From contig OZ242296.1 in assembly GCA_965207735.1 (NCBI GenBank), forward strand, positions 3,448,782 to 3,512,781: a stretch of DNA of 64,000 nt, in the 5' to 3' direction. Made by a program: the position numbers and the translations under genes. Origin of the DNA: Candidatus Versatilivorator sp. GTDB lineage: Bacteria; Acidobacteriota; Terriglobia; Versatilivoradales; Versatilivoraceae. This document shows positions 1,797 through 40,453 of the stretch, in pieces. The first letter of the stretch is position 1; each line of letters opens with the position of its first letter. Under the pieces are notes generated by a model. It did not search any database, had not been told where the DNA came from, and worked only from the letters and a program-made list of their open reading frames with translations.

Positions 1797-2636
1797 TTGC
1801 ATTTGGAATCGAACATGAACTTGCTCAAACAAGAGGCTGTCGGGAGCGACACGGTCTGGCCCGATATCCGTGAAGATGTCTCCCTCGAAGCAGCGCGCGA
1901 GCCTATCCTGGCCAGCTTTCTGCATTCCACCGTGCTCAACCACCAGAGCCTGGAGGACACGCTCAGCTTTCACCTTGCCGCCAAGCTGACCAGTCCCAGC
2001 CTGTCTCCCATGATGATTCGGGACGTCATCGACGAGGCGCTGAGCGACAGCGCTTCCATTCGAGCCGCGGTTCGAGAGGATCTGAGGGCCTTCCGCGACA
2101 GAGACCCCGCCTGCAACAGCTATGCCGAACCCCTGCTCTACTACAAGGGGTTCCATGCCCTGCAGTCCTACCGCGTGGCCCACTGGCTGTGGACGCAGGA
2201 GCGCCATCAGCTGGCGCTGCTGCTCCAGAACCGGATTTCGGAAGTCTTCCAGGTGGACATTCATCCGGCCGCCCGCATCGGCAAAGGGATCTTCATCGAC
2301 CATGGGACGGGCGTGGTTATCGGCGAGACAGCCGTGGTCGACGACATGGTCTCCATGTTGCACGCGGTGACGCTGGGCGGGACCGGCAAGGAGAGTGGAG
2401 ACCGGCATCCCAAAGTCCACCGCGGGGTCCTGATCGGCGCCGGCGCCAAGATCCTGGGCAACGTGCATGTGGGTGAGGGCGCCAAAGTCGGAGCCGGCAG
2501 CGTGGTTCTGAACGATGTCCCGCCCCACTGCACCGTCACCGGCGTTCCGGCCAAGGTGGTTGGATGCCCGGACGTGGATGAGCCCGCGGTCGAGATGGAC
2601 CACCAGATTCCCGAGCGACCCGGCGTTCAACCCTGA
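1797..2636 (+). CDS. cysE: serine O-acetyltransferase
   Basis: N-terminal SATase domain (YAEPLLYYKGFHALQSYRVAHWLW) followed by hexapeptide repeats (IHPAARIGKGIFIDHGTGVVIGETAVV). The start may be the Met at 1812. Confidence 0.85.
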   Translation: MHLESNMNLLKQEAVGSDTVWPDIREDVSLEAAREPILASFLHSTVLNHQSLEDTLSFHLAAKLTSPSLSPMMIRDVIDEALSDSASIRAAVREDLRAFRDRDPACNSYAEPLLYYKGFHALQSYRVAHWLWTQERHQLALLLQNRISEVFQVDIHPAARIGKGIFIDHGTGVVIGETAVVDDMVSMLHAVTLGGTGKESGDRHPKVHRGVLIGAGAKILGNVHVGEGAKVGAGSVVLNDVPPHCTVTGVPAKVVGCPDVDEPAVEMDHQIPERPGVQP

Positions 2637-2668
2637 TAAACCCGTCCAACACCACAACAGGGGACACC

Positions 2669-3331
2669 ATGAAACATCTGGGTCTTGCCCTTCTGATGGT
2701 CGCCTGGCTGGCCTGCGGTCGTTCATCGGTTCCGGAGGCGGGCTTCGTGCCCCTCTTTGACGGCAAGTCTCTTCAGGGTTGGCAAGCGGTGGAAAAGGTA
2801 GGTGAGGGCTACCTGGTGGAGAACGGAGTCCTGATCTGCCCCGCCGAGGGCGGGGGCAATCTCTTCAGCGAGCGGGAGTACTCGGACTTTGTCCTCCGCT
2901 TCGAGTTTCGCCTGCAGGAAGGTTCCAACAACGGGGTCGGCATCCGGGCGCCGCTGGTTGGAGACGCCGCTTACCAGGGGTTGGAAATCCAGGTCCTCGA
3001 CAACCACTCGCCCCGCTACAAGGACAAGCTCCGCCCTGCCCAGTATCACGGGTCGGTCTATGACCTGGCTCCGGCCAAGCGGGGGTTCCTGAAACCGACG
3101 GGAGAGTGGAACCAGGAGGAGATCCGTGCCGTGGGCCGCCAGATCACGGTGACCCTCAACGGCACGGTCATCGTCGATTTCGATCTGGATTCGGTGACCG
3201 ACAGCCAGGTTCTGGAGAAACACTCCGGAGTGGCGCGGAGCAGTGGACACATCGGATTCCTGGGGCACGGGACCAAAGTCGAGTTCCGGAACATTCGAAT
3301 CAAGGAAATTCGCCGGGAGTCCGAGCTGTAA
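2669..3331 (+). CDS. DUF1080 / 3-keto-disaccharide hydrolase family secreted protein
   Basis: Lipoprotein-like signal (LMVAWLACG). Hallmark DUF1080 motifs: FDGKSLQGWQ, ENGVL, GNLFS, FVLRFEFRL, NNGVGIRA, and a C-terminal FRNIRIKE. Confidence 0.75.
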   Translation: MKHLGLALLMVAWLACGRSSVPEAGFVPLFDGKSLQGWQAVEKVGEGYLVENGVLICPAEGGGNLFSEREYSDFVLRFEFRLQEGSNNGVGIRAPLVGDAAYQGLEIQVLDNHSPRYKDKLRPAQYHGSVYDLAPAKRGFLKPTGEWNQEEIRAVGRQITVTLNGTVIVDFDLDSVTDSQVLEKHSGVARSSGHIGFLGHGTKVEFRNIRIKEIRRESEL

Positions 3332-3571
3332 GAGGCTGCCAGCGGCGCACGAGCCCGGTAGTGCAGGGGCCCGGCTTGTCTGAAACAACCGACAAACGAC
3401 AAAAGAAAAAAGACTTATCCACGAAGGGCCACTAAGGCGCGGGAGAAGACTCAAGAGGGATGGGGCGAAGGTCGGCAAGGGGGTCAAGGAAGGACACAAG
3501 ACAAAGAGGATTTGTCCGCGGAGGAGCAAGTGGGGGCGCTTCCCACTGCATCGTGATTTACAGGGATTATT

Positions 3572-3726
3572 AACATCGATGTACAGGATTCACAGGATTC
3601 TTCAGGAAACGGCCAGCTTCTAATGCCGGGAATCCGCAAATCCGCACCGGATCACCGCCCGAGTTGGCTTCTGGTGCAGGAAGCTCTCGTCCTGTTAATC
3701 CTGTGCATCCTGTGCATCGATGTTCA
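3572..3726. repeat. MITE-like element, family 1
   Basis: TIR-like arms around the core ATCCTGTnnATCGATGTTCA at 3572-3598 and 3698-3726, ~100 bp apart. Sits inside a larger repeat (~3395-4000) whose copy recurs at 24016-24430. Other copies lie at 8178-8328, 24298-24326 and 32509-32544. Confidence 0.55.
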
Positions 3727-3811
3727 ATGGGTAGAAAATCGTGCTAACCGAACAGGGTCCTTGTTCCCGACCGGCTATGAAGATTCCTTGTTTCACTCTA
3801 AAGGAAAACGG

Positions 3812-4966: not shown

Positions 4967-6370
4967 TTGACCCGGGATCTTAGTCCCATGACCGACTCGT
5001 CACCCGCGAACCGGACGGAAACGGATCTCGAACGTCTGGACAAGCAGACCCTGTGGCACCCCTTCACTCAAATGAAGGAGTGGATGGAATCTCCTCAACT
5101 GGTGATCGAGCGGGGCCGGGGAGTCTACTTGTACGACACCCGGGGAAGGAAGTATCTGGATGGAGTCTCTTCCCTTTGGGCCAACATTCACGGCCACTCC
5201 CACCCCCACATCGTGCGGGCCATCCGCCGCCAACTGGACCGCCTGGACCACAGCTCCCTGCTGGGGCTGACCAACGCTCCCGCGGCGCAACTGGCCGGTA
5301 AGCTGGTCGAGCTCACGCCCCCGAACCTGACCCGGGTCTTCTTTTCGGACGACGGAGCCACGGCCGTGGAGATCGCCCTCAAGATGTCGTTCCAGTACTG
5401 GAGAAACCAGGGGCGGCAATGGGACTCCAAGAAGACGTTCGTGGCCTTCTCCAACGCCTATCACGGGGATACCCTGGGGTCGGTGAGCGTGGGTGGGGTG
5501 CGGCTCTTCCACGAGGTCTTCCGGCCTCTTCTTTTCCCGACCATCAGGGTCCCCTATCCCTATTGCTACCGATGCCCGCTGGGAAAGCAGCCGCCGAACT
5601 GTGAGATCGACCAGCTCCGGGAATTCGAACAGGTGCTGCGGACCCGCCATCGCGAGATCTGCGGCGTGGTGGTGGAGCCCATGATTCAGGGGGCGGGGGG
5701 AATGGTGCCCATGCCCGATGGCTTCCTGGGGAAACTGACCGAGCTGACCCGGCGTTTCGGGGTTCACCTGATCCTGGATGAGGTGGCAACCGGATTCGGC
5801 AGAACCGGCAGGATGCTGGCCCTGGAACACGAGGGCGTCCAGCCCGATTTTCTGGCCCTGGCCAAGGGAATCACCGGCGGCACGCTGCCATTGGCGGCCA
5901 CCCTGACCAGCGAGGAGATCTTCGAGTCCTTTCTGGGGGAGTACGAGGAGTTCAAGTCCTTTTTTCACGGACACACCTACACGGGGAATCCGCTGGCCTG
6001 CGCGGCCGCCCTGGCCAACCTGGAGGTCTTCAGCAAGGAGAAGACTCTGCAGAAGTTGCAGGGGAAAATCACCTATCTGACCAAGGCGCTGCGGCGCATG
6101 TGGGAACTGCCCTGCGTCGGGGACGTGCGACAACTGGGGTTCATGGCGGGAATCGAGCTGGTGCGGGATCGCGGCAGCAGGCAGCCTTTTCCGCTGGGAC
6201 GCCGCATGGGACACCGAGTGGTTCTGCAGGCCCGGCGGCGCGGCGTCCTCCTGAGGCCCCTCGGCGACACCGTTGTGCTGATGCCCCCGCTGTCGATCAC
6301 CCGGCCCCAATTGAAAACGCTGGTGGAGGTTACCTACAATAGCATCCAGGCCGCTTGGGAAGAGGAGTGA
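4967..6370 (+). CDS. bioA: adenosylmethionine-8-amino-7-oxononanoate aminotransferase
   Basis: Class-III PLP aminotransferase. LWHPFTQ, SSLWANIHGHSHP, GGMVPMP, LILDEVATGFGRTG and the Lys region ALAKGITGG are BioA-typical. Confidence 0.85.
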   Translation: MTRDLSPMTDSSPANRTETDLERLDKQTLWHPFTQMKEWMESPQLVIERGRGVYLYDTRGRKYLDGVSSLWANIHGHSHPHIVRAIRRQLDRLDHSSLLGLTNAPAAQLAGKLVELTPPNLTRVFFSDDGATAVEIALKMSFQYWRNQGRQWDSKKTFVAFSNAYHGDTLGSVSVGGVRLFHEVFRPLLFPTIRVPYPYCYRCPLGKQPPNCEIDQLREFEQVLRTRHREICGVVVEPMIQGAGGMVPMPDGFLGKLTELTRRFGVHLILDEVATGFGRTGRMLALEHEGVQPDFLALAKGITGGTLPLAATLTSEEIFESFLGEYEEFKSFFHGHTYTGNPLACAAALANLEVFSKEKTLQKLQGKITYLTKALRRMWELPCVGDVRQLGFMAGIELVRDRGSRQPFPLGRRMGHRVVLQARRRGVLLRPLGDTVVLMPPLSITRPQLKTLVEVTYNSIQAAWEEE

Positions 6371-6405
6371 CCCCGGTCCACCAAGCGCATAGAGAATGAG
6401 GCAAT

Positions 6406-7446
6406 ATGAAATTCATTTGGAGAACACGTCTGGCGCCGCTGTGTTTGCTGTCGGCTCTCGCCGCCTGCCAGGCGCCGGATGAGCCTGAAAACGCGGAACG
6501 CCGCCTGCGCAACCTGCGTCAATTGACCTTTGGAGGGGAGAATGCCGAAGCCTACTTCTCCTCCGACGGTCAGCGCCTGATATTTCAAGCGACCCGCGAC
6601 GGCGGCCAGTGCGACCAGATCTTCGTGATGGGCACCGACGGCAGCGGCATCACCCGGGTCAGCAGCGGCAAGGGCCGCACCACCTGCGCCTATTTTCTCA
6701 AGGACAGCCAGCGCTTCGTCTACGCCTCGACCCACCTGGGCAGTGAAAATTGTCCGCCTCGACCCGACTTTTCCCGGGGATACGTGTGGGCCGTCTACCC
6801 CGACTACGACATATTCCTCTCCGATTTCAACCAGGGCCTTACCCGCTTGACCGACACGCCGGGCTATGACGCCGAAGCCACCCTTTCTCCCGACGGAAAA
6901 AAGATCGTATTCACCTCCATGAGGGATGGAGACCTGGAGCTTTACTCCATGAACACCGATGGGTCGGGGGTCCAACGGCTTACCCACACCCTCGGTTACG
7001 ACGGGGGCGCCTTCTACTCCCCCGACAGTCAAAAGATCGTCTACCGCGCCTCGCACCCCACCGATGAGGCCGCCAAAACCAAGTACCGGGACCTGCTGAG
7101 CCGAAACCTGATCGAGCCCAGCCAGCTCGACATCTTCGTGATGAATGCCGACGGCAGCGACCGGGTTCAGGTGACCCGCAACGGCGCCGCCAACTTCTGT
7201 CCCTTCTTCCATCCGGACGGCCGGCGGATCATCTTTGCCTCCAACCTGGGCGACCCCAGCGGCCGCAACTTCGATCTCTACCTGATCGACATCGACGGAA
7301 CCAATCTGGAACAGGTCACCTTCGACGAGACTTTCGACGGATTCCCGATGTTCTCCCCGGACGGGAAGCAACTGGTCTTCGCCTCCAACCGCCACGGAAA
7401 AGTTCGCGGCGAGACCAACGTCTTCATCGCCGACTGGGTGGAGTAG
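6406..7446 (+). CDS. TolB-like WD40/PD40 beta-propeller repeat protein (secreted)
   Basis: Signal peptide, then repeated PD40 motifs (SPDGKKIVFTSMRDGDLELY, SPDSQKIVY, HPDGRRIIFASN, SPDGKQLVFASNR). Confidence 0.7.
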   Translation: MKFIWRTRLAPLCLLSALAACQAPDEPENAERRLRNLRQLTFGGENAEAYFSSDGQRLIFQATRDGGQCDQIFVMGTDGSGITRVSSGKGRTTCAYFLKDSQRFVYASTHLGSENCPPRPDFSRGYVWAVYPDYDIFLSDFNQGLTRLTDTPGYDAEATLSPDGKKIVFTSMRDGDLELYSMNTDGSGVQRLTHTLGYDGGAFYSPDSQKIVYRASHPTDEAAKTKYRDLLSRNLIEPSQLDIFVMNADGSDRVQVTRNGAANFCPFFHPDGRRIIFASNLGDPSGRNFDLYLIDIDGTNLEQVTFDETFDGFPMFSPDGKQLVFASNRHGKVRGETNVFIADWVE

Positions 7447-7466
7447 GCCCGACCGTTAAACGACCC

Positions 7467-8078
7467 TTGGCTCCTTCTCCGCAAGCCGATTTCCTTCCCC
7501 GATCTTTCTTCGACCGCCCCACCCAAACGGTCGCCCGTGAGCTGCTGGGTTGCCGTCTCGTTCGAAAGCTGGGCGGGACCCTGCTGGCGGCAACCATCGT
7601 CGAAACCGAAGCCTACATCGGCGAGAAAGATCTGGCCTGCCACGCCAAAGCGGGCCGAACCCCGCGAACCGAGATCATGTACGGCCCCCCGGGATTCGCT
7701 TACGTCTACTTCACCTACGGAATGCACTGGATGCTGAATCTGGTCACTGAGGCGGCCGGCTTCCCGGCGGCCGTGCTCATTCGAGCCCTCGAGCCGCTAG
7801 AGGGGATTGCACGCATGCAGGAGCTCCGAGGCGGCAAGCCCCTGTCCCAACTGGCCAGTGGTCCGGCCAAGCTGACCCAGGCCCTGGGGATCGCCCGGGG
7901 AGAAAACGGGCTGGACTGCTGCCGTCCCGACTCACCGCTCACCCTGGCCCGAGGGGAAGAGGTGCCGCCCTCCTCTGTAGTGGCGACGCCCCGCATCGGC
8001 CTGGGGCAGACACCCGAGCCCTGGTTGTCCAAGCCTTGGCGATTTACCATCCGGGGGAATGGGTTTGTCTCGAGGTGA
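7467..8078 (+). CDS. mpg: DNA-3-methyladenine glycosylase (MPG/AAG family)
   Basis: Family signature ARELLGCRLVR..ETEAY.GE.D.A.HA..GRT.R...M.G.PG.AYVY..YGMH..LN. Confidence 0.8.
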   Translation: MAPSPQADFLPRSFFDRPTQTVARELLGCRLVRKLGGTLLAATIVETEAYIGEKDLACHAKAGRTPRTEIMYGPPGFAYVYFTYGMHWMLNLVTEAAGFPAAVLIRALEPLEGIARMQELRGGKPLSQLASGPAKLTQALGIARGENGLDCCRPDSPLTLARGEEVPPSSVVATPRIGLGQTPEPWLSKPWRFTIRGNGFVSR

Positions 8079-8177
8079 GAAAAATGGGGAGTCACGGAAG
8101 CCGGGCCGCCAGGTGAAGGCTGATACGGAAGCGGAGATGCCGGACCGGCGCCGAGGATCGATATTTTTTTCCACTAT

Positions 8178-8328
8178 GAACATCGATAGACAGGATGAAC
8201 AGGACGAGAGGGGGCTGCACGAGAAGCTGGCTTGGCAGATGATCCGGTGTGGGCCTACGTATGCCCAGGATTACAAGACACCAGACTCGTAAAACCAAAT
8301 CCTGTATATCCTGTCTATCGATGTGAAC
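8178..8328. repeat. MITE-like element, family 1 (inverted orientation)
   Basis: Arms gaacatcgatagacaggatgaacagg (8178-8203) and atcctgtatatcctgtctatcgatgtgaac (8299-8328) are inverted copies of the family-1 motif. The core is homologous to the 3599-3697 core in reverse orientation. Confidence 0.55.
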
Positions 8329-8528
8329 TTAAAACATCGTCCCGAGGGGCAGTGCTGTGGGTTCAACCGGAGCCATGGCTGAAACATGCCGGCTCCGGCG
8401 CTTCCAAACCGACCATTCGCAAGCCTGTCCTCTCACCGCCGATACAGGTTACAATGGGGCCGCCCAACCGCCGCCACCGCGGTTCGCGGCCACCGACCCA
8501 TGCCGGTCGACACTCGCCGAGGAGTTCC

Positions 8529-9470
8529 ATGCGCATTGCCATCGTGATGACCCCTATTTCCGATCACCACCTCCGACTGGCCGGCCAGGTGGGGGTCTCC
8601 GACGTGGTCATTCGCTATCCGGGACTGGAATATTCCGAACTGGCCGACCAGAAAGCTCGAATCGAGTCCTTCGGACTGGGGGTCTCGGTCATCGAGGGCT
8701 ACCTGCCCATTGAGGACATCAAGCTCGGGGGACCCCAGCGCGATGCCGAGATCGAGCAGATGAAGATCCTGATCCGCAACATGGGGCGAGCCGGGATCGG
8801 CCTGCTTTGCTACAACTTCATCGCCGGTGGCGACTGGGCCAGGACGTCGGTCAACGAAAAAGGGCGCGGAGGCGCCCTGGTCACCGGCTTTGACCTGAGC
8901 GAGCTGCCGCAGGCCACTGCCTCGAAGGCGGGCCTGCCCTCGGCCGAACGCCTCTGGGAGAACCTGGACACCTTTCTGGAAAGAATTCTGCCCGTGGCCG
9001 AGGAGTGCGGGGTCACGCTGGCCATGCATCCGGACGATCCCCCGATCTCCAACTTCCAGGGTTTTCCGCGCATCATGAACAGCGTGGAAGGCTTCGAACG
9101 ACTGGTCGGCCTGAGTTCCAGTCCGGCCAACGGCATCTGCTTCTGCCAGGGGACCTTCGCCGAAATGGGAGTGGATATCCCCTCCTCCATCCGGCGCCTG
9201 GGACCTCACATCAAATACGTCCATTTCAGGGATATCCGGGGGACGAGCAGCCGCTTTGTGGAGACCTTTCACGACGAGGGGCAGACCGACATGGTGGAAG
9301 CCATGCGGGCCTACCGCGACATCGGTTTCAACGGCCCCATGCGGCCGGACCACGTTCCGCAACTGTCGGGCGAAGAAGCGGGCGAGGCCGGCTACACCAC
9401 GCTGGGCCGGCTTTTTGCCGTCGGGTACATGCGAGGGTTGATGCAGGCCGTCGGTGAGAGTTCGGCCTGA
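8529..9470 (+). CDS. mannonate dehydratase-like (UxuA family) TIM-barrel protein
   Basis: ORF 8232..9470; likely start at MRIAIVM (8529). UxuA-like motifs include LAMHPDDPP and FHDEGQTDMVEAMRAYRDIGFNGPMRPDHVP. Shorter than canonical UxuA, so the start is uncertain. Confidence 0.6.
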   Translation: MRIAIVMTPISDHHLRLAGQVGVSDVVIRYPGLEYSELADQKARIESFGLGVSVIEGYLPIEDIKLGGPQRDAEIEQMKILIRNMGRAGIGLLCYNFIAGGDWARTSVNEKGRGGALVTGFDLSELPQATASKAGLPSAERLWENLDTFLERILPVAEECGVTLAMHPDDPPISNFQGFPRIMNSVEGFERLVGLSSSPANGICFCQGTFAEMGVDIPSSIRRLGPHIKYVHFRDIRGTSSRFVETFHDEGQTDMVEAMRAYRDIGFNGPMRPDHVPQLSGEEAGEAGYTTLGRLFAVGYMRGLMQAVGESSA

Positions 9471-11419: not shown

Positions 11420-11832
11420 GGCCGGAAAGTAGCACAGCCGTTGGGGGGTGTCAAACCTAGCCTGAACCTAGCCTGAGGCTGCCCCAAAGGCGGGCGCACG
11501 ACCAAAAGATCTGATAGAGTCGGGAAGAAGCCCCGTAAGAATCCGGCGCGAATCATGGCTACAAAGCGACTGCCTGGATGGCCGGCCATGTTTGCAACGA
11601 CAGCCTTGCTGCTGCTCGGTGGGGGACCGCTTCGTTCACAACAGCGCGATCCCGCGAATGCGCAGGGACTCGGTATCGGCAACCCCCTTGCTCTTTCGGG
11701 TGGGTCTGCTGGTAAGCCTGACTCCACGCCTGGTCTTGCGAGGCGGGTACTCGCACATTCTCGGTTACCTGGATACGCCCGCCTCCCGCTCTTTCGAAAC
11801 GGGAATCGGATTTCGTTTCTAGCCTGAAAACG

Positions 11833-12612
11833 ATGAAGGCGACACTCACCGGATTGCGTGGCTTGATGCTGGACCTGGACGGCACTGTCTACGAGGACAA
11901 CCGCCTGATCCCCGGAGCCGCCGAAGCCATCGCCGCCCTCAGGGAGCGCGGGTTCCGGCTTCGCTTTGTGACCAACACCACCAACAAGCGACGAGAAACC
12001 ATCCGGGACAAGCTCCATGTCCTGGGCATCGAATCCGATGCCTCGGAGATATTCACGGCTCCGGTGGCAGCCAGCCTGATGCTGCGGCGTCATCCGGAGG
12101 CCCGCTGCTGGGTGGTCACCCGGGGCGACTCCATCCAGGAGTTCCAGGGCCTGAGACTGGACGAGGACCAGCCCGATTTCGTAGTTCTGGGCGATCTGAT
12201 GGAAGGGTTTACCTTTGAGCTGCTCAACCGCGTCTTTCGCAAGCTGATGGACGGCGCGGAGCTGATTGCCATGCAGAAGAACCGCTACTGGCTGACCCGG
12301 GGGGAACTCACTCTGGATATGGGGCCGTTCGTTGCCGCCCTGGAGCACGCCACCGGACGCATGGCCCGGGTGGTGGGCAAGCCCTCGCGGGAATTCTTCC
12401 ACCTGGCGCTTTCGCACCTCGGACTGGCCCTGTATCAAGCGGTCATGGTGGGGGACGACTGGGAATCCGACATCGCCGGCGCCCAGCGCGCGGGCCTGCG
12501 AACGATCCTGGTCCAAACCGGCAAGTATCAACCCGCAGACGAGAAAAATCTCGATCCGCAACCGGACGGCGTCATCGAAGGCCTCGGCCGCCTGCCGGAG
12601 ATCCTGGCTTGA
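11833..12612 (+). CDS. HAD-IIA family hydrolase (NagD-like)
   Basis: MLDLDGTVY, FVTNTT, and a C-terminal MVGDDWESDIAGAQRAGL. Confidence 0.75.
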   Translation: MKATLTGLRGLMLDLDGTVYEDNRLIPGAAEAIAALRERGFRLRFVTNTTNKRRETIRDKLHVLGIESDASEIFTAPVAASLMLRRHPEARCWVVTRGDSIQEFQGLRLDEDQPDFVVLGDLMEGFTFELLNRVFRKLMDGAELIAMQKNRYWLTRGELTLDMGPFVAALEHATGRMARVVGKPSREFFHLALSHLGLALYQAVMVGDDWESDIAGAQRAGLRTILVQTGKYQPADEKNLDPQPDGVIEGLGRLPEILA

Positions 12613-12890
12613 CATAGACGACTTTAAGGCCGTTCCCCATGGGTCCGCTGGTCATGTCGCCAAGCCCAACCGGCGCAAGCTCATTATTCCTCCCACCACC
12701 AACACTGCCAATTCGCCGAACGACGGCGACGCCTTCGGCAACTGGAAGGGTAAATGTGCACGATTGAGAGCATTTCCGGGACCACGCTTCGTGACCAACC
12801 GGGCAAAAGGAAACAAATCATCCTGGACTGAAGGTGCCGATCATTCAGTGTGCTAATGGCGTGAAATATTCGCTGTTAGCGAAATAAGTC

Positions 12891-12919
12891 TTGACTTCCA
12901 GCTCCGAAATGTTTATTTT
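12891..12919 (+). promoter_or_regulatory. sigma70-like promoter (TTGACT-N17-TATTTT) upstream of the XRE-RT module
   Basis: -35 TTGACT at 12891-12896, a 17-nt spacer, then -10 TATTTT at 12914-12919. Sits in a low-GC non-coding leader. Confidence 0.35.
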
Positions 12920-12926
12920 CAAGATG

Positions 12927-13378
12927 TTTGGAAAATACGGAAGTAAAAGTCATCACACCCTGGGTTGGCTTCGGTCAACCCGAGGAGGGGAAACCCTCTA
13001 CCGCTTACTGCAGCAATCACCCTCTCTCCTCAGTGGTGGTCGCTGAGCGAAGCGAGACCCAACCAATGACCCGTTGGGTCTCTGACACATTTGGATTTAG
13101 CTGCCACGTTCCGTCTTTCTGTTGGTGATGACCTCATTCCGCAATTCGGCGGGTGAGCAACAGAAAGGAGGTGAGAAAATGCTCTCACTGGGAACCAAAC
13201 CGTGGCGGCGGCGACCGAAGAGCGGGGGTAAGCAGTGTAGATGGCTACGTAATCCGCGCCTGCTTCGGACAGCTATCCTTATAGGCATCTGGGCCTATCG
13301 TCTATGGAGGATTTGCCGGGCGCTTAATGGTATTTTCGGAGGCTAGGTCGCTTTCCACTGTGTCAAATTACAACCGGA
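12927..13378 (+). ncRNA. candidate structured non-coding leader / retron msr-msd candidate
   Basis: ~450 nt with no credible ORF directly upstream of the XRE-RT genes. Perfect hairpins at 12962-12981 (6-bp stem) and 13054-13082 (10-bp stem, 9-nt loop). An 8-bp inverted repeat, GAAAATAC (12929-12936) with GTATTTTC (13330-13337), flanks the region and resembles a retron a1/a2 pair. Confidence 0.3.
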
Positions 13379-13723
13379 TTGGTAAGGATGGCTGTTGACG
13401 TACTATCAGAAGCACTTCGGCTGATTCGAGTGTTTCACGATGTAAAACAAAAACAATTGGCGGAACAATTGGGTATCTCGAAGTCGTATCTTTCAGAGAT
13501 CGAACGAGGTAAGAAAATACCCTCCATTGAGGTCATTCAGAAATACGCCGCTGAGTTTCAAATGCCAGTTTCGTCCATTCTTTTTTTCGCCGAGCAGTTG
13601 GTCGACCCAAACCGGAAACCTCCAGATGCCGACCGTGTAAGAGGAATCATTGCCGGAAGGGTCATCAGTTTCCTGCAGTTCATCGAAGCAAAAGCGAAAG
13701 AACATGCCGAAGAAGCGCACTAA
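13379..13723 (+). CDS. XRE-family helix-turn-helix DNA-binding protein
   Basis: HTH_XRE signature QKQLAEQLGISKSYLSEIERGKKIPSIEVIQKYAAEF. The stop overlaps the RT start by 20 nt, which suggests translational coupling. Confidence 0.7.
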   Translation: MVRMAVDVLSEALRLIRVFHDVKQKQLAEQLGISKSYLSEIERGKKIPSIEVIQKYAAEFQMPVSSILFFAEQLVDPNRKPPDADRVRGIIAGRVISFLQFIEAKAKEHAEEAH

Positions 13724-14594
13724 ATGCTACGCGGAGCAGGATAGCCCCTTCTATAAGCTCCGCTCGAAGGCGAAACTTGCAAATCTTCTCTTTCTCAACG
13801 TCGATAAATTAGAGTTTCTTGCGGAATCCGAGGACCTATACTTCGATTTCCCCAAGAAGAAAATGAGTGGCGGTTTCCGCCCGATCAGTGCGCCGCGTGC
13901 CGATCTCAAGATTGTACAGAAGAGAATTGCAGACTTGCTTCAACGCATCACTCCGCCGGATTATCTGTTTGCGCCGGTTTGCGGGCGTTCTTATGTGGAC
14001 AATGCCAAGCGGCACTTGGGAGCCAGCTCAGTTCGACACCTAGATATCGAGGATTTCTTCCCGAGTTGCACCGCAAATAAAGTCATATGGTTTTTTCGAA
14101 AGCGAATGGAATGCTCCCCGGACGTTGCAGTACTCCTTCGTGGCGTTGTCACAAGGCGTGGTTCGTTGCCACAGGGCAGCCCATGCAGTCCGATACTAGC
14201 GTATCTCTGCTATGTGGATATGTGGGAAGAAATTGAACGCCTAGTAGGCGAGAGTAGTTGCCAACTGAGTGTCTACGCCGACGACCTGACAATTTCAGGA
14301 GAAATGGTCCCGGAGAGTCTTATTTGGGAAATAAAACAAATACTGTTCCGACACGGTTTCCGACACAAACGCAGCAAGGAACGGAGCAAGATATACAAAC
14401 CTACAAAGATAACCGGTGTAATCCTCAATGGAAACCAGCTTCTCGTGCCGAACCGGCAGCACCAGAGACTCTATCAAGTTCGTCAGAAGTTGAAGGTTTC
14501 CCGCTCGCCTGAGCACCGCAGGCAGCTTAAGGCACAACTGGTCGGGCGAGAATCACAGTTCCGCCAGATTGTCGGAACTCCGCAAAGTCAGTAG
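13704..14594 (+). CDS. retron-type reverse transcriptase
   Basis: RT domains: GGFRPISAPRADLKIVQKRI (RT1/2), NAKRH (retron NAxxH motif), LDIEDFFPS (motif A), LPQGSPCSPILAYL (B'), VYADDLTISG (YADD), and KITGVILNG (VTG-like). ~297 aa. Lower GC than flanking DNA. Confidence 0.85.
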   Translation: MPKKRTKCYAEQDSPFYKLRSKAKLANLLFLNVDKLEFLAESEDLYFDFPKKKMSGGFRPISAPRADLKIVQKRIADLLQRITPPDYLFAPVCGRSYVDNAKRHLGASSVRHLDIEDFFPSCTANKVIWFFRKRMECSPDVAVLLRGVVTRRGSLPQGSPCSPILAYLCYVDMWEEIERLVGESSCQLSVYADDLTISGEMVPESLIWEIKQILFRHGFRHKRSKERSKIYKPTKITGVILNGNQLLVPNRQHQRLYQVRQKLKVSRSPEHRRQLKAQLVGRESQFRQIVGTPQSQ

Positions 14595-14603
14595 ACCCAC
14601 CAC

Positions 14604-14636
14604 GGGACTCTTGCTCAACTGGCAAGAGAAGAGTCC
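14604..14636 (+). terminator. hairpin immediately 3' of the RT stop
   Basis: gggactcttgctcaactggcaagagaagagtcc: outer stem GGACTC/GAGTCC and inner stem TTGC/GCAA. No clear U-tract, so it may be an RNA structural element rather than an intrinsic terminator. Confidence 0.3.
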
Positions 14637-14868
14637 ATAAATAGCAAGTACTCTCCAACCGTGGACTAATCGACAAGAAACGAGGATATTGGTGTCGCGA
14701 CATGTTTGCGGCATTGGCCGCTCGAGGGACAATGCGTCCCACCGCCGGTCCGCGTTCCGTCCGGTTGAGCTCCCAGAAATCAGCTTCGCCAGGATATGCT
14801 ATCCTTTCCACCAAAAACTTCCTGGCTAATGAAGTGCTGGCATCATCTCCGATGAGAGACTGTGCAAG

Positions 14869-16050
14869 ATGAATCCTGAAACGAGTCCGTTCAGCCCCGG
14901 ACAACCCGTGCCGATTGAGTTTTTTATTGGGCGCATCCGTGAGGTCGAGCGTCTGCGGGGCATGGTAAGGGCTAGTACACAAGGCAAATTCCGAATCGGA
15001 TTTGTCAGCGGAGAACGGGGCATCGGCAAGAGTTCCCTGGCGTCGTTCGTGCGCTACCTTTCAGAGCACGAGAGCCAAGTCGCAGGATGGCATGTCTTTC
15101 TCGGCGGCGTTGAGGATTTGAATGAGATGCTTCGAAGGACCTTCGATCGCCTGCTGAAGGAAAGCATGGACAAACCCTGGCATGAGCAAATCAGGAACTT
15201 TTTTGGAAACCACGTGCGTCAAGTGGGTCTGTTCGGGGTCACTTTGGAGTTGAATCTCCAGGAAAGCGACTGGTCAACGCTCGCCCATGATTTCGTGCCG
15301 ACCGTCAGGCGGCTTCTGAACGAAATCAAGGACCAGAAGCGTGCGCTATTTCTCATCCTGGATGACATCAACGGTCTCGCGGGTTCCGAAGTTTTCGCCA
15401 ACTGGCTGAAAAGCACCGTGGACGAGATCTCCACGTCCCAACAGAAAATGCCTCTCTGCATTCTAGTTGTCGGCCTTGAGGAGAGGCGCCAGGAGCTGGT
15501 GTCGAAGCAACCGTCTCTTGCGCGCGTCTTCGAGTTGATCGACATCGCCCCCTGGTCTGACGATGAAGCCATGGACTTCTACCGGAAGTCATTCGACGCC
15601 GTGGGCGCTAAGGTTGCCGACAGCGACATGCGCCAACTCGTCCGATTCACCGGCGGACTTCCTGTTCTGGCCCACGAGATCGGCGACGCCGTCTGGCGCA
15701 CGGCCGAGGGTCCGGAAATCGAGTCAAAAGAAGTATGGGAAGGAATCTTGACCGCAGCCGAGGTGATCGGCCGGAAACTGCTGCAACCCCAAGTGTTCAG
15801 GGCAATTCGCAGTGAGCGTTACCGATCCATTCTTCGAAAAATGTCGGGCGCGCCCCGGATGAGCTTTGGAAGATCAGAACTCATGGGACGTCTGTCGGAC
15901 AACGAAAGAAAGGTCATGGACAACTTCCTGCGACGCATGAAACGGCTCGGAGCGCTGGAAACCGATCCCGAGGTCAAAGGTGGATACCAATTCCCCAACC
16001 TCCTCCACATGCTTTATTTCTGGATTGAATCCCAGCGGATTTCCCGATGA
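14869..16050 (+). CDS. P-loop NTPase (AAA_16/ATPase_2-like, minimal STAND-like) associated with the retron RT
   Basis: N-terminal FIGRIREVERL motif, then Walker A GERGIGKSSL and Walker B LFLILDDINGL, with a helical C-terminal half. Shares the island's reduced GC. Confidence 0.7.
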   Translation: MNPETSPFSPGQPVPIEFFIGRIREVERLRGMVRASTQGKFRIGFVSGERGIGKSSLASFVRYLSEHESQVAGWHVFLGGVEDLNEMLRRTFDRLLKESMDKPWHEQIRNFFGNHVRQVGLFGVTLELNLQESDWSTLAHDFVPTVRRLLNEIKDQKRALFLILDDINGLAGSEVFANWLKSTVDEISTSQQKMPLCILVVGLEERRQELVSKQPSLARVFELIDIAPWSDDEAMDFYRKSFDAVGAKVADSDMRQLVRFTGGLPVLAHEIGDAVWRTAEGPEIESKEVWEGILTAAEVIGRKLLQPQVFRAIRSERYRSILRKMSGAPRMSFGRSELMGRLSDNERKVMDNFLRRMKRLGALETDPEVKGGYQFPNLLHMLYFWIESQRISR

Positions 16051-16085
16051 ATGTACTCGTTGCCTGCGATCAGGGAAGTGCTGCT

Positions 16086-16361
16086 TTACCCCTTTGACAA
16101 ACTCGGCTTGGTTAGCTCCATTAGCGTCTGCTCCTTGTCGAATACCAGGGCGCGCACATTGCCGACAGCTCGGATACTGCTGAGAAGCGGACCGTTGGCG
16201 AGCTCTGGGAACGGAAAAGCGACGGTAAGGGCCTCTTTCTTGTCGCAGAAAATACGCTGGGCGGAAGGGATGTGCGCCAGCAGCTTATCGACAAGGTCAA
16301 TCTCGCCTGAACTCCCGAGCCTCTTTCCCTCCCGGCGTAGCGTATCGGACTCTGGAAGACT
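16086..16361 (-). pseudogene. start-less ORF / gene remnant at the island edge
   Basis: A minus-strand frame reads a 91-aa protein-like sequence (...GEIDLVDKLLAHIPSAQRIFCDKKEALTVAFPFPELANGPLLSSIRAVGNVRALVFDKEQTLMELTKPSLSKG*). It opens directly after a stop and has no plausible ATG/GTG/TTG start. Confidence 0.25.
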
Positions 16362-16363
16362 TC

Positions 16364-19060
16364 ATGCGTGAGACTCTGCTTAGCTACCTGCCCGAGTTTC
16401 TGGACCGCGGCGAGGACACGGCGCTTATGGGCCGGTCCGGGCTGCGGACCGACTACTGGTCCTATGGCAGGCTGGCCCGGACTTCCTTCCAGGTGGCCCG
16501 GGAACTGGGCTCACGGGGACTCGGCCTGGGGGACCGACTGCTGTTGCGGGAAGACAACTCCCCCGAATGGGTGGCCACCTTCCTGGGGTGCCTGATGCGT
16601 GGGGTGGTCGTGGTTCCCCTGGATGTTCAGAGCTCTCCCGAGTTCGTGGCCGGCATCGAGCACCAGACCCAACCCAAGCTGGTTCTTGGAGGTGGCCCCG
16701 GCGCCTCACTTGATGACCTCCAGTCGCCGGTGGATTCTGTCGCGGCTCTTTGCCGACGCGCGACCGCACAGGTGCCGACTCCCGACTGGAGTCATGCCGG
16801 CAAGGTCACTGCCGACCACCTGGCCGAGATCGTGTTTACCTCGGGGACCACGGCGGCGCCCAAGGGGATTCGACTCACCCATAGAAACTTGCTGGCCAAT
16901 CTGACTCCACTCGAGACCGAGATCCGGAAATATGTCAAGTGGGCGGCTCCGGTCCATCCCATCCGCTTCCTGAGCCTGCTGCCACTCAGCCATGTCTTCG
17001 GCCAGATGATGGGCATTTTCGTGCCGCCTCTGCTTGGTGGCCAGGCTCTCTTTCTCAATACCCTCAATCCCTCTGAGATCATCTCGGCCATTCGCCGGGA
17101 GCGGATCTCGATGCTGGCCACCGTTCCCCGCATCCTGGAGCTGCTGCGGGACAAGATCGAGCGGGACGAGGCCGCCCAAGATAGCCGGCCCCCGCTGGTC
17201 GAGCTTTTCGAGCGCAGCCACGGTCATCACTGGCTGCGTCATTGGTGGACCTTTCGCCACGTCCGCCGCCGATTCGGCTGGAAGTTCTGGGCTTTCCTTT
17301 CGGGAGGCGCAACCCTCGATTCCGGCACCGAGGAGTTCTGGAAGAGGTTGGGCTATGCCGTCATGCAGGGGTACGGAATGACCGAAACGGCGGCCGTCAT
17401 CAGCCTTGCCCACCCCCTTCGACCCGGCCGCGGCTCGATCGGCAAACCCATGCCCGGCCAGGAAATCAAGCTGGACGAAGGGGGAGAGATCCTGGTGAGA
17501 GGCCGCAACATCTCGCCCGGCTACTGGGGGGCGGAGGATGCGCCCCTGACCGACGAGGAGGGTTGGCTGCGAACCGGGGACCTGGGCCAACGGGACGCCA
17601 GGGGAAACCTCTATTTCCGCGGCAGGCGCAAGGAGGTCATCGTCACCTCAGCGGGCTTGAACGTCTACCCCGCCGATATCGAAACGGTTCTCAACCGGCA
17701 ACCCGAGATCGGCGCCAGCGCGGTGGTGGGAGTGAACGGAGCGCAGGGCCCCGAACCGGTGGCCGTGCTCATCCTGAGAAGCCCGGAGGCGGACCCTTCC
17801 ACCGCGGTCCAACGCGCCAACCAGCACCTCAGCCCCTACCAGCAGATCCGGCACTGGGTGGTCTGGCCCGAGCGCGATTTTCCGCGGACGGCCACTCAGA
17901 AGGTACGCAAGCGGGACCTGGTCCGGTTCGCGAGCCGGCAGGGAGCGGAACCGGGCGGTCAGGCTGGAGAGGAGCAGGGAAGCCTGCTGGGCGAAATCCT
18001 GACACTGGTCGAGGGCATCACCGGGACCTCGCCGCGGCGGCGGGACCGCGAAGCCAATCTGACCTCCGATCTCAAGCTGGATTCCCTGGCCAGGGTCGCG
18101 CTGATCACCCAATTGGAAGATCGCTTCCGGATGGACCTGGACGAATCCAAAGTCACCGAAGCTCTTACTCTGGGTGACCTGGAAAGGCTGCTCCGCCGCC
18201 CGGACGGTCTACCGGAGGCCGGCCGGGGCGAGGCGGCTCCTCCAAGTCCTGAAACCGGTGGCGACCCGCGGGCTCCATCGGGACCACGCCCGGACCCGGG
18301 CTCCTCGCGGTCGCACCCGGAAACTTCCGTCAGGCCCTGGCGCCCTTATCCCTACCCCTACTGGTCCTTGAGGCGGCCCGCCACCTGGATGCGCTTCCTG
18401 TTCCAGCACTGTCTCATCTGGCCGCTCACCCATTTGCTCTGCTGGACCCGGGTGCGTGGACGAAGACACTGGCGCGGACTTCGGGAGCCCGTGCTGGTGA
18501 TCGCCAACCACGTGACCTTTTTCGATCCGGCGCTCGTCCTGGCCCGAATGCCCTGGCGCTACCGGAACCGCCTGGCTGTTGCCATGATCGGAGAAAGGCT
18601 GAGGGACTTTCGATACCCGCCGCCTGGGCGCGGGCTTGCCCGCTTCAGCGACTACCTGGCCTACGGCGCGACTGCCGGCGGGTTCAATGCCTTTCCGCTG
18701 CCCAGGCAAACCGGGTTCCGGCGCAGCTTCGACTACGCCGGGGAGGCCATGGATCGCGGCTACAGCGTCCTGGTTTTTCCGGAGGGATCACGCACCAGGG
18801 ATGGCGAAATGCAGCCCTTCCAGGCTGGAATCGGGCTGCTGGCGGCCGGTCTGGGTGCCCCGGTCGTCCCCGCCAGGATCGAAGGATTGTTTGAGCTCAA
18901 GAAAAGGAGATTCGGAGGAATCCGCTGGCCCTTCACCCGGCCCGGTCAGGTTTCCGTCACCTTCGGTCCACCGCTGCGGCCCTCGCCCTCGGACTCTCCC
19001 CAGGACCTGACCCGGGAGTTGGAGAAACGGGTCAGAGGATTGAGTCGCCGAAAGGCCTGA
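16364..19060 (+). CDS. tri-domain acyl-CoA/acyl-ACP synthetase - carrier protein - lysophospholipid acyltransferase (Aas-like fusion)
   Basis: AMP-binding domain (TSGTTAAPKG, GYGMTETA, LRTGDLG, KEVIVTSAGLNVYP). Central PP-binding segment (DLKLDSLARVALITQLE). C-terminal PlsC acyltransferase (NHVTFFD, FPEGSRTRDG). Confidence 0.8.
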   Translation: MRETLLSYLPEFLDRGEDTALMGRSGLRTDYWSYGRLARTSFQVARELGSRGLGLGDRLLLREDNSPEWVATFLGCLMRGVVVVPLDVQSSPEFVAGIEHQTQPKLVLGGGPGASLDDLQSPVDSVAALCRRATAQVPTPDWSHAGKVTADHLAEIVFTSGTTAAPKGIRLTHRNLLANLTPLETEIRKYVKWAAPVHPIRFLSLLPLSHVFGQMMGIFVPPLLGGQALFLNTLNPSEIISAIRRERISMLATVPRILELLRDKIERDEAAQDSRPPLVELFERSHGHHWLRHWWTFRHVRRRFGWKFWAFLSGGATLDSGTEEFWKRLGYAVMQGYGMTETAAVISLAHPLRPGRGSIGKPMPGQEIKLDEGGEILVRGRNISPGYWGAEDAPLTDEEGWLRTGDLGQRDARGNLYFRGRRKEVIVTSAGLNVYPADIETVLNRQPEIGASAVVGVNGAQGPEPVAVLILRSPEADPSTAVQRANQHLSPYQQIRHWVVWPERDFPRTATQKVRKRDLVRFASRQGAEPGGQAGEEQGSLLGEILTLVEGITGTSPRRRDREANLTSDLKLDSLARVALITQLEDRFRMDLDESKVTEALTLGDLERLLRRPDGLPEAGRGEAAPPSPETGGDPRAPSGPRPDPGSSRSHPETSVRPWRPYPYPYWSLRRPATWMRFLFQHCLIWPLTHLLCWTRVRGRRHWRGLREPVLVIANHVTFFDPALVLARMPWRYRNRLAVAMIGERLRDFRYPPPGRGLARFSDYLAYGATAGGFNAFPLPRQTGFRRSFDYAGEAMDRGYSVLVFPEGSRTRDGEMQPFQAGIGLLAAGLGAPVVPARIEGLFELKKRRFGGIRWPFTRPGQVSVTFGPPLRPSPSDSPQDLTRELEKRVRGLSRRKA

Positions 19061-19088
19061 AACAACCGAGCGCTATCCGCAAAGGACA

Positions 19089-19300
19089 CCCACCCGGGAG
19101 CGCGGGCGTCCCGCCCGCCTTCTCTCCCTTTGGCTACCGCTGAGTTTTCCAGCGATGCGGCAGCCGGCCATCCTGCCGGCGGGAACCGCCTGGGTCCGGC
19201 CGAAGGAGAGCCATGGCGCCGGTGCCGGTCGATCCGGGTGGAGGAGATGGGCGAGGCCGCGGGAAGACTTGTGCGGGCGGGACGCCCGCGCTCCCGGGGG
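19089..19300. repeat. MITE-like element, family 2 (30-bp TIRs)
   Basis: cccacccgggagcgcgggcgtcccgcccgc (19089-19118) and its inverted partner gcgggcgggacgcccgcgctcccgggggg (19273-19300). The ~150-bp core is the reverse complement of the core at 50461-50612. Confidence 0.6.
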
Positions 19301-19397
19301 GCTTCATCTCCTGACAGGGTCACACCAGGGACGCAAAATTGCAGGAGCATTCCGGCACCGCACGGACAGTCAGGGCCGTGGGCCGCCGCGAGGGAAT

Positions 19398-20516
19398 TTA
19401 CAGCTTGCCGGCGATGGCCTCGGCCATCTGAAGGGTGGTGCTGGCGCCTCCCATGTCGTAGGTCCGCACCCGGCCTTCGCGGATGACTTCTCCCACGGCC
19501 TCCTCCAGCCGTTGGCTCTTGTGATCCTCGGACAGGAAGTCCAGCATCATTTTGGCCGCCATAATGGTGGCGATAGGGTTGACCTTGGACTGCCCCACGT
19601 ATTTGGGCGCCGAGCCGTGGGTCGGCTCGAAGACGGCCAGCCTCTCGCCGATGTTTCCGGAGCAGGCAAACCCCAGTCCGCCTACCATCTGGGCGCACAG
19701 ATCCGAGACGATATCCCCGAACAGGTTGGGCGCGACCAGGACGTCATAGTCCAGGGGGTTCTTGAGCAGCCACATGGCCATGGCGTCCACGTTGGCATGG
19801 TCCCAGGCGATCTCCGGGTAGGAAGCCGCGATGCGCCCGGCCGCCTCCAGGAACAGCCCGTCGGTGGCCCGTACCACGTTGGCCTTGTGCACCACTGTCA
19901 CCCTCTTGCGACGGTGGTCTCGGGCAAACTGGAAGGCAGCCCGGATGATCCGCTCCGAGCCCTTGCGGGAATTGATTTTGCAGGAGATGGCCCACTCGTC
20001 CGGAGCCAGTCCCTTGAAGGGAGCAAAGGAAGGCGAGATCTCCTCCAGCAGACGGGACAGTCTCTCCGGCACGGGATGAAATTCCACGCCGGAATAGAGA
20101 TCTTCCGTATTCTCGCGAAAGATGACCAGATCGATTGCTTCTCGAACGTTGAGGGGATTGCCGGCAAAGGCCCGGCAGGGTCGCAGGCAAACGTAGAGAT
20201 CGAAGAACTGGCGCAGGCGCACGATGGGGGAACGATAGACCAAGCCCTGGCCGCGGAGCCGCGGCGCCAGTTCCTGCCCGGCTTCTCGCGCCGGCTTGGA
20301 GGTGATGGCTCCGAACAGGGCGGCATCCACCTGCTTCAACAGGTCTATGGTGCGGCCGGGAAGCGGGTCTCCTTCCCGGCGCCAGAATTCCCAGCCAATG
20401 TCGCCCGGAAGATACTCCGCATCCAACCCTAGACGATCCAGCACGATCCGGGCGGCCTCCAGGACCTCTCCACCTATCCCGTCTCCCGGCAGCCAGGCGA
20501 TCTTGTATTTGGGCAT
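19398..20516 (-). CDS. isocitrate/isopropylmalate dehydrogenase family protein
   Basis: KIAWLPGDGIGGEV, the R/Y substrate motifs (RENTEDLYSG), NLFGDIVSDL, and the GSAPKYVGQ region. Start set at MPKYK. Confidence 0.8.
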   Translation of the reverse strand: MPKYKIAWLPGDGIGGEVLEAARIVLDRLGLDAEYLPGDIGWEFWRREGDPLPGRTIDLLKQVDAALFGAITSKPAREAGQELAPRLRGQGLVYRSPIVRLRQFFDLYVCLRPCRAFAGNPLNVREAIDLVIFRENTEDLYSGVEFHPVPERLSRLLEEISPSFAPFKGLAPDEWAISCKINSRKGSERIIRAAFQFARDHRRKRVTVVHKANVVRATDGLFLEAAGRIAASYPEIAWDHANVDAMAMWLLKNPLDYDVLVAPNLFGDIVSDLCAQMVGGLGFACSGNIGERLAVFEPTHGSAPKYVGQSKVNPIATIMAAKMMLDFLSEDHKSQRLEEAVGEVIREGRVRTYDMGGASTTLQMAEAIAGKL

Positions 20517-38365: not shown

Positions 38366-38370
38366 GTTAG

Positions 38371-39414: not shown

Positions 39415-39556
39415 AGCCTTTGCTCCCGACCGGTTGGGTCCAAACTACCCATGGCTCTGTTATCTGACCATCAACTAGGATTGTGCTCTGTTTCCCCCAA
39501 CCGGTAGCTTCCCAGAGAATACCTTCGGCAGCAGCGAGTCACTGAGGGCGGCGAGA

Positions 39557-40402
39557 CTACCACTCAATTGGAGTCAACCTTGGACTCAGTTTGTCGGCAA
39601 CTTTGGGCACCCAACTGTCATTGTGGCGATAAAACACGAAGCGCTCCGCCATAAAGGCCACACGACGATCAATTTCCTTGACTAGCGGCGGCCTCGCCTG
39701 AACGAAAAAAAGCCCCTCACGCGGCCCCTGCCAACAGCCGTATAATGCAACGTGAGATGACAAAGGGAAACTGAACTCCCCAAAAGGCGGTTTCAACCCG
39801 TACCCCTCATCGAAGAACACCGGATTGTCACAGGTGAGAAAGTAATGTGAGTCGTCTGCTATGATAACTCTCCATGTCATGGAAAAGATGCAGTGAATCA
39901 TAACCGGCGAAATCCATTGACGACGGATAAGAGCGTCTTTCATTGAAAGTCGCTTGCTGTCAAATTTCCCCTCCCATTCCTCGATCTCGTGTAGTAGTTC
40001 TTCCTGCGATAAATTGAATCTCGATGCCTCTAACCCAAGATTTCCTTTGATCTCTGATAACAGTTCGCTTTTCACTTGAGGGGCTTTCTCAATCATTTTT
40101 CGCCTATTACGCGGCCCCCTCTTGATCATTGATTCCAAATAAACTGCGACTGCTCGTCTACCTTCCACTCCAACCTCCTGGCCATTTCGCAGTCGATCGA
40201 GCGGATCTTGAGCGGGACCTTCGATCTGGTCGCTCAACGCACGCTCATCTTCCTCACTATAAAATCCGCTCGATTGCGCCACATTCTTAATCGGAAGTCG
40301 TTTAAACTCCTTCGAACATTTGTCATACATCCAGCTTTTGTCCGGGTCCTCCGGTGTTGCAAAGTGGCGTAGGTAGTGTTGTGGAAGGTAGTGCTGTCCC
40401 AT
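39557..40402 (-). CDS. DUF4238 domain protein
   Basis: N-terminal QHYLPQHYLRHF matches the DUF4238 signature (HYxPQxYLxxF). Confidence 0.65.
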   Translation of the reverse strand: MGQHYLPQHYLRHFATPEDPDKSWMYDKCSKEFKRLPIKNVAQSSGFYSEEDERALSDQIEGPAQDPLDRLRNGQEVGVEGRRAVAVYLESMIKRGPRNRRKMIEKAPQVKSELLSEIKGNLGLEASRFNLSQEELLHEIEEWEGKFDSKRLSMKDALIRRQWISPVMIHCIFSMTWRVIIADDSHYFLTCDNPVFFDEGYGLKPPFGEFSFPLSSHVALYGCWQGPREGLFFVQARPPLVKEIDRRVAFMAERFVFYRHNDSWVPKVADKLSPRLTPIEW

Positions 40403-40453
40403 TGTTCCTGAAGTTTCAGCTTAATCGACGTGAACGATGCCGAGGTCCGAGGT

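Follow-up and report, generated by a model that had tools for sequence, protein, structure and literature searches.

Sequence evidence for a self-contained Type VI retron in a variable chromosomal site of an uncultured Acidobacteriota lineage

Type VI retrons, a class in the retron classification of Mestre et al. 2020, are operons in which a noncoding RNA (ncRNA), a small protein (SP), a helix-turn-helix (HTH) protein and a reverse transcriptase (RT) are encoded in that order (Zhang et al. 2025, bioRxiv 10.1101/2025.10.22.683967; Garcia-Rodriguez et al. 2026, bioRxiv 10.64898/2026.04.27.721009). In Retron-Vpa2 of Vibrio parahaemolyticus, a single hybrid RNA of ~470 nt comprises the ncRNA together with the SP coding sequence, and in it the ribosome-binding site and start codon of SP are sequestered; a 7-nt direct repeat is found both in an msd loop and in a riboregulator loop, and translation of the toxic SP needs phage-induced multicopy single-stranded DNA (msDNA) (bioRxiv 10.1101/2025.10.22.683967). 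In Retron-Sen3, SP is a toxin and the HTH protein its antitoxin, inhibition of RecBCD sets off defence, and a long-range IR1-IR2 pairing forms around the SP coding region (bioRxiv 10.64898/2026.04.27.721009). Here we analysed a 64-kb stretch of contig OZ242296.1 from Candidatus Versatilivorator sp. (this whole stretch is referred to below as the window), in which a stretch of lower GC content carries genes for an HTH protein, an RT and a P-loop nucleoside triphosphatase (NTPase). The original prediction took these three genes together for a candidate unclassified retron-like defence system. Judged from its sequence, the interval from 12613 to 14744 is, with high probability, a self-contained and canonical Type VI retron, and the NTPase is encoded by a separate gene. 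The parts of the retron needed first are as follows.

12613–14744, plus strand: retron cassette, DNA that relatives lack, or replace by other sequence, between their HAD and NTPase genes (blastn)
13379–13723, plus strand: HTH protein of the Cro/C1 type, Type VI retron, 114 aa (alternative ATG at 13388)
13704–14594, plus strand: Type VI retron RT, 296 aa (PADLOC RT_VI)

Assignment to Type VI comes from both proteins. The HTH protein matched the PADLOC model HTH_VI at 9.9e-32 over profile positions 2-91 of 92, and Pfam HTH_3 at 8.8e-14. The RT matched PADLOC RT_VI at 1.5e-93 and 311 bits (profile positions 1-272 of 279), the runner-up among the PADLOC retron models being RT_III-A with 151 bits; it also matched Pfam RVT_1 at 2.3e-17 and, under that model's cut-off, NCBIfam retron_St85_RT at 7e-42. 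Membership of the RT in the Type VI clade (retron clade 3) was judged by the PADLOC profile scores. Given the HTH_VI and RT_VI matches, the module is not unclassified. The retron-type motifs previously read in the RT (NAxxH, YADD and a VTG-like element) were borne out by an alignment of 14 homologues, in which N100..H104 (NAKRH), Y191-A192-D193-D194 and I236-T237-G238-V239 show little or no variation. The overlap of the HTH and RT genes also stands, with the RT ATG 20 nt before the HTH stop codon. An HTH gene was found in all related loci with sufficient upstream sequence, and the order SP-HTH-RT is kept in 14 loci according to tblastn and in five more according to inspection of their open reading frames (ORFs).

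An SP gene and a structured RNA, components that were absent from the original prediction, lie in the 760 bp that precede the HTH gene. They comprise the following elements, in which SD denotes the Shine-Dalgarno sequence of SP.

12925–13364, plus strand: predicted hybrid RNA (hyRNA) of ~440 nt, with an msr-msd-like 5' part and the SP coding region, from covariation in 13 loci
12962–12981, plus strand: SL1, a short stem-loop of the hyRNA
12984–12999, plus strand: SL2, a short stem-loop of the hyRNA
13000–13053, plus strand: variable long hairpin of the hyRNA
13054–13082, plus strand: SL4, with a loop that contains AATGACC
13114–13124 and 13158–13168, plus strand: anti-SD strand and SD side of one helix, with 7/11 pairs changed on both sides
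13125–13133, plus strand: loop with the second GATGACC, in the riboregulator part of the hyRNA
13084–88/13360–64, 13100–08/13201–09 and 13211–16/13346–51, plus strand: long-range helices connecting the 5' part with early codons of SP and with the stretch just past the SP stop codon
13179–13346, plus strand: SP, 55 aa, MLSLGTKPWRRRPKSGGKQCRWLRNPRLLRTAILIGIWAYRLWRICRALNGIFGG, the predicted toxic effector

In related loci, nucleotide conservation also extends to the DNA that precedes SP (alignment A3). RNAalifold was run on the 13 loci and pairs were counted explicitly: 97% of the cells in the hyRNA helices were paired, compared with 39-54% when the partners were slid. Compensatory changes are present in 35 of the 65 pairs, and the observed covariation score was reached by none of 500 shuffles. 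Folded on its own, the window sequence reaches these helices in its minimum free energy structure as well (z = -4.6). With a sequence profile built from the non-coding 5' part, the element was recovered at 12925-13171 and in another 20 Type VI loci, in each case ~200 nt ahead of the HTH gene. A scan of 12000-17000 against Rfam, with E up to 1, returned no match; the class of the hyRNA was judged by the published description and by covariation.

The ATG of SP lies 7 nt past AAAGGAGGTGA, a strong SD sequence. In the predicted fold this SD is paired with the upstream anti-SD strand, and the start codon falls within a hairpin. Position-matched ORFs of 51-62 aa occur in 19 other loci. Same-position counterparts were found by tblastn in L002, a locus syntenic with the window, and in 13 metagenomic loci with RTs 56-70% identical to that of the window; inspection of ORFs in five more distant loci added further counterparts of 51-62 aa. 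In all of them the N-terminus is basic, and the C-terminus is hydrophobic and of the YRLWR type. SP has no Pfam match, and it is by analogy with the described Type VI systems that we predict it to be a toxin.

The GATGAC-type repeats in the two loops vary together: L081 has GAAGAC in both loops, and L082 has GACGAC in both. A conserved GTCATC element in the 5' part of the hyRNA is complementary to both of these loops (sites at 12949-12954, 13066-13071 and 13127-13132), and in L082 a GTCGTC element stands alongside the GACGAC loops. The hyRNA thus holds a copy of the sequence that msDNA would present, and the GTCATC element could be a part of the riboregulator that has not been reported. As a candidate for the a1/a2 priming helix we considered pairing of GTCATCAC (12949-56) with GTGATGAC (13125-32). 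It was not adopted because it shows one compensatory change only and one of its positions is unpaired in 11/13 sequences.

Upstream of the hyRNA we found a promoter and a palindrome.

12891–12919, plus strand: sigma-70-like promoter for the hybrid RNA, TTGACT-17-TATTTT, agreeing with 9/12 consensus positions in the scan
12869–12883, no strand assigned: palindrome TTCGCT-GTT-AGCGAA, just ahead of the -35 box, a putative operator of the HTH protein

The TTGAC columns of the -35 box and the TAT..T columns of the -10 box are conserved in alignment A3. The palindrome is conserved in 12/13 related loci of that alignment, by sequence and without compensatory change, and TTCGC-N5-GCGAA has a single match in the 64-kb window, where 0.1 would be expected by chance. 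It is probably the operator of the HTH protein. RNAalifold proposed that 12869-12882 pairs with the base of the variable hairpin; this pairing was rejected, since the palindrome precedes the predicted promoter and its conservation is one of sequence, with no compensatory change. At the other end of the cassette, a terminator scan gave no convincing intrinsic terminator after the RT gene, and the hairpin that follows the RT stop codon is unexceptional (z = -1.9).

Set beside the published descriptions, the locus resembles Retron-Vpa2 in its ncRNA-SP-HTH-RT order, in a hybrid RNA of ~440-470 nt that carries both the template and the SP coding sequence, in stems that hold the SP ribosome-binding site and start codon, in a short repeat shared by the msd and riboregulator loops, and in an SP that has 55 aa in both systems and a hydrophobic C-terminus. 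It differs in its host, a lineage of metagenome-assembled genomes (MAGs) from the Acidobacteriota (Terriglobia-like) with a high-GC genome. With Retron-Sen3 and the cl2075 Type VI lineage it shares the SP-HTH-RT genes, an ncRNA within ~280 nt of the SP start that has several stem-loops and a variable long internal hairpin, a sequestered ribosome-binding site and long-range pairing of the IR1-IR2 type around the SP coding region. The SP of Retron-Sen3 is longer, at 79 aa with an N-terminal extension, whereas that of the window has 55 aa, and Retron-Sen3 makes its single-stranded DNA and SP constitutively, with the HTH antitoxin acting post-translationally.

By analogy with Retron-Vpa2, the RT, the HTH protein and the hybrid RNA may form one complex. 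In the uninfected cell the HTH protein would restrain reverse transcription, and SP would stay untranslated. Upon infection msDNA would accumulate, prompted either by phage recombination proteins or by a loss of nuclease activity of the RecBCD type. In its msDNA form, the SL4 GATGAC repeat could then pair with the second GATGAC loop in the riboregulator, and this loop pairing would open the SP ribosome-binding site, so that the hydrophobic SP would be made and the cell would stop, as in abortive infection. The complex, the toxicity of SP, the sensing of phage or of RecBCD status and abortive infection are here inferred from Vpa2 and Sen3. As to the mode of control, we lean modestly towards Vpa2-like translational derepression by msDNA, because the anti-SD helix covaries and the two GATGAC loops vary in step in L081 and L082. 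Within the family, the chief alternative is control as in Retron-Sen3, with an SP that would be produced constitutively and neutralised post-translationally by the HTH protein; we regard this as possible, though clearly the less likely of the two.

The NTPase gene and the DNA in front of it follow the cassette.

14745–14868, plus strand: region upstream of the NTPase gene, which aligns with L001, L002, L004 and L056 whatever precedes it and lies outside the retron
14869–16050, plus strand: AAA+ NTPase of the AAA_16/ATPase_2 family with an Orc1/Cdc6-like three-domain architecture, 393 aa, stand-alone

A system of three genes, with the NTPase as the effector or sensor of a new kind of retron, has some points in its favour. 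ATPases are effectors in other retron types, and here the HTH, RT and NTPase genes are adjacent, share the plus strand and all lie in lower-GC DNA. The predicted layout was itself correct: the 393-aa NTPase gene (ORFs; Pfam AAA_16/ATPase_2) starts 274 bp past the RT stop codon, and a composition scan of the window together with Pfam placed a low-GC island (GC 0.47-0.55 over ~12600-16200, down from 0.62-0.66 around it) between a gene for a HAD hydrolase and an Aas-like gene for an AMP-binding/PP-binding/acyltransferase fusion. By module, GC content is 0.509 in the retron cassette, 0.557 in the NTPase gene, 0.637 in the HAD gene and 0.656 in the Aas-like gene, with 0.624 for the whole window. 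The view of the HTH and RT genes as a retron module in a horizontally acquired islet is supported.

Membership of the NTPase in that module is not. We scanned one genome per species for the NTPase, which gave 80 loci at 58-99% identity (L001-L080), and searched these by tblastn with SP, HTH and RT. The retron was present in a single one, L002, and 79/80 were without it. Conversely, the NTPase was absent from all 80 metagenomic RT loci. Thirty of these have an RT 44-70% identical to that of the window, 18 of them with at least 1 kb of downstream sequence, and in these 18 we found neither the NTPase nor any other common downstream gene. Clustering of ORFs from the 80 NTPase loci gave no conserved neighbour and no transposase, the largest cluster other than the NTPase being an antisense ORF artefact. 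The consistent RT-ATPase linkage of retrons with ATPase effectors (PtuA-like, ATPase-TOPRIM) is thus not seen among these loci, and a literature search for a retron plus AAA_16 found nothing relevant.

Comparison with relatives shows where the retron ends. In a blastn alignment with L001, the nearest relative, the matches cover window positions 11500-12612 and 14745-19500 but nothing in between; since the middle is unaligned and the region upstream of the NTPase gene is kept in relatives, we place the cassette at 12613-14744. The site between the HAD and NTPase genes occurs in several states.

L004: empty, ~64 bp between the flanks
L001: gene for a transmembrane plus pentapeptide-repeat protein at 6327–7784; NTPase 99% identical, flanks 93-94%
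L056: HTH-M78 peptidase gene, truncated pentapeptide gene at 6206–6928, HigBA
L163: arrangement as in the window
L162: retron, two small ORFs, pentapeptide gene at 2521–3780, NTPase
L161: insertion sequence (IS) and other genes; RT-to-NTPase gap of 3.9 kb

About 125 bp before the NTPase ATG are kept in every state of the site, so that the NTPase retains its own upstream region, and in L162 and L161 there are 2-4 kb of other genes between the same retron and the NTPase. The NTPase is therefore a conserved chromosomal neighbour in relatives that have no RT (L001, L004 and L056), L001 among them with a 99% identical NTPase; this is an outcome that the original prediction had itself named as counting against it. 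In addition, the predicted effector, SP, is already inside the retron RNA, and the NTPase has no effector domain (see below). Together with co-occurrence in 1/80 NTPase loci and 0/18 retron loci, these observations leave the three-gene system very improbable, even though L002 and L163 share the arrangement of the window. On this sequence comparison, the retron landed in a site of variable content that lies between the HAD and NTPase genes, and the NTPase is no component of the retron.

That the site is often empty or otherwise filled in this MAG lineage could also suit a retron that is a decaying remnant without function. All three ORFs are intact, however, and the catalytic YADD is present; SP, HTH and RT are 83-85% identical to those of L002 without frameshifts, a divergence equal to that of the flanking housekeeping genes, and the RNA helices are kept by compensatory changes. 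Decay is accordingly a reading to which we give almost no weight.

Several points weigh against the identification of the cassette as a self-contained Type VI retron, or limit it. The RNA, the toxicity of SP, msDNA formation and phage defence at this locus are predictions, made from sequence and by analogy. Neither the branching G nor the a1/a2 priming helix was identified in the 13-locus alignment. No match to the cassette was returned by blastn among 5,426 E. coli genomes, and Vpa2 and Sen3 were compared through their published descriptions. Finally, retron and NTPase stand side by side in the same orientation in three genomes of the lineage (the window, L002 and L163), so a lineage-specific functional link between them is formally possible.

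We next consider what the NTPase is. It matched Pfam AAA_16 (PF13191) at 5e-13 and ATPase_2 (PF01637) at 1.4e-8, above the curated cut-off and with Walker A and Walker B. The FxGR, Walker A and Walker B residues that had been pointed out held up, as F19/R22, G48..G51.G53.K54 and D165 are invariant in 42 homologues. A first AlphaFold2 model, built from 12 close homologues, had a predicted local distance difference test score (pLDDT) of 56 and was discarded. The model from 42 sequences reached a pLDDT of 92.5 and consists only of an AAA+ P-loop domain, a lid and a C-terminal winged helix. Its best fold matches were ATPase_2 and Orc/Cdc6 proteins, with NB-ARC lower, and the match to nSTAND1 was at the cut-off (27.3 vs 27.1 bits). 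An architecture of the STAND/Avs type would have sensor repeats and/or an effector domain, and none were seen in the model of the 393-aa protein. The Walker-type ATPases PAB2304 and SSO1545 (ATPase_2; PDB 2qen and 2fna) and archaeal Orc1/Cdc6 are 13-18% identical to the NTPase; unlike them, the NTPase family is bacterial, with proteins of ~395-410 aa. PADLOC gave no match for the NTPase of the window, and for 42 family members only weak, scattered matches at the level of the P-loop (SngB, SspC and BrxD).

The family is large, with 232 representative clusters below 1e-30. The 80 NTPase loci span Acidobacteriota, Binatia, Latescibacterota, Poribacteria, Gemmatimonadota and Gammaproteobacteria, and also include Planctomycetota, Verrucomicrobiota, Spirochaetia, Bacteroidota and others. 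Identity of 58-72% across at least 10 phylum-level lineages is far above what vertical descent would lead one to expect; judging by these sequence identities, the NTPase is spread through many phyla by horizontal transfer. Many of the hosts belong to groups of the sponge-community type (Poribacteria, Latescibacterota, Binatia, Gemmatimonadota and Spirochaetia).

At closer range, the NTPase gene of the window is 98.7% identical in nucleotide sequence to that of L001 (8001-9182), while identity is 92-94% for the HAD gene, the spacer and the Aas-like gene, and only 75% for the 124 bp that directly precede the NTPase. This difference suggests that the NTPase allele was recently exchanged or converted between related strains. 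In L056 the NTPase (8001-9019) is truncated, with 303 matching residues in an ORF of 339 aa, and ~5.9 kb of other genes lie between it and the Aas-like gene; therefore the right side of the NTPase is also an insertion site. The truncated pentapeptide copy of the same locus is ~1 kb upstream of the NTPase, with HigBA in between. The pentapeptide gene may represent a further cassette of the mobile or defence type, or else an older NTPase partner within the lineage.

These observations bear on a further explanation, in which the NTPase would be a lineage-specific partner or anchor for exchangeable upstream cassettes, as a trans regulator, a sensor or an insertion marker. The site directly upstream of the NTPase has five states in one Terriglobia lineage, L001 and L162 have a pentapeptide-repeat gene directly before the NTPase while the L056 cassette contains a truncated one, and the NTPase is better conserved between the window and L001 than its flanks are. 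Some neighbours of the NTPase in other genomes are mad3, AriA and GajA/PtuA-like proteins, and the family is therefore often found in defence islands. Yet L004 has the NTPase with an empty site, the 80 loci share no conserved neighbour or transposase, the NTPase resembles Orc/Cdc6 and PAB2304 more than TnsC, and variable hotspots beside conserved genes are common without any need of a functional link. We thus consider an anchoring role improbable, though a little less so than a three-gene retron. Somewhat less doubtful, but still unlikely, is that the NTPase would act in defence or regulation as a single gene not described so far, or would mark an insertion hotspot, and that the GTCATC element would be a riboregulator part that has gone unreported.

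The neighbourhoods of the NTPase elsewhere showed some further patterns. Among 116 scanned neighbours of the 80 loci, pooled over loci, PADLOC found mad3, mad8 and mad2 in 3-5 proteins each. In L009, L011, L019 and L024 (Binatia, Bryobacterales) the NTPase lies amid a large c2 protein, an ABC-type ATPase of the AAA_21/AAA_15 kind and a DUF499 protein, a setting that may be a MADS/BREX-like island.

In the window itself, the left end of the cassette (12613-12865, ~250 bp) is common to L002 and is not conserved in other Type VI loci; it contains no convincing ORF and has no RNA match, and a promoter-like site is present within it on the minus strand (12711-12683). A scan for tRNA and tmRNA genes as integration targets found none in the 64-kb window. 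A second low-GC island is located at 36391-41803 (GC 0.51-0.52), where minus-strand ORFs of 347, 281 and 449 aa stand beside a transposase-like ORF of 618 aa; inspected by eye only, the ORFs include ones resembling DUF4238 and HsdS of type I restriction-modification systems.

Altogether, the proposed system of a retron plus an AAA_16 NTPase is not supported, and a false lead is removed: there is no AAA_16-coupled retron at this locus. Instead, a complete Type VI retron locus, with an operator-like palindrome, a promoter, a hybrid RNA, SP, HTH and RT, is added from an uncultured Acidobacteriota lineage, on the strength of the sequence comparisons above. Alongside it, the analysis documents a variable hotspot of small size and a family of ATPases that has been transferred very widely. 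Covariation in the 19 related loci independently supports the hybrid-RNA riboregulator of the two recent preprints, and their alignment could aid in testing how msDNA opens the ribosome-binding site of SP.

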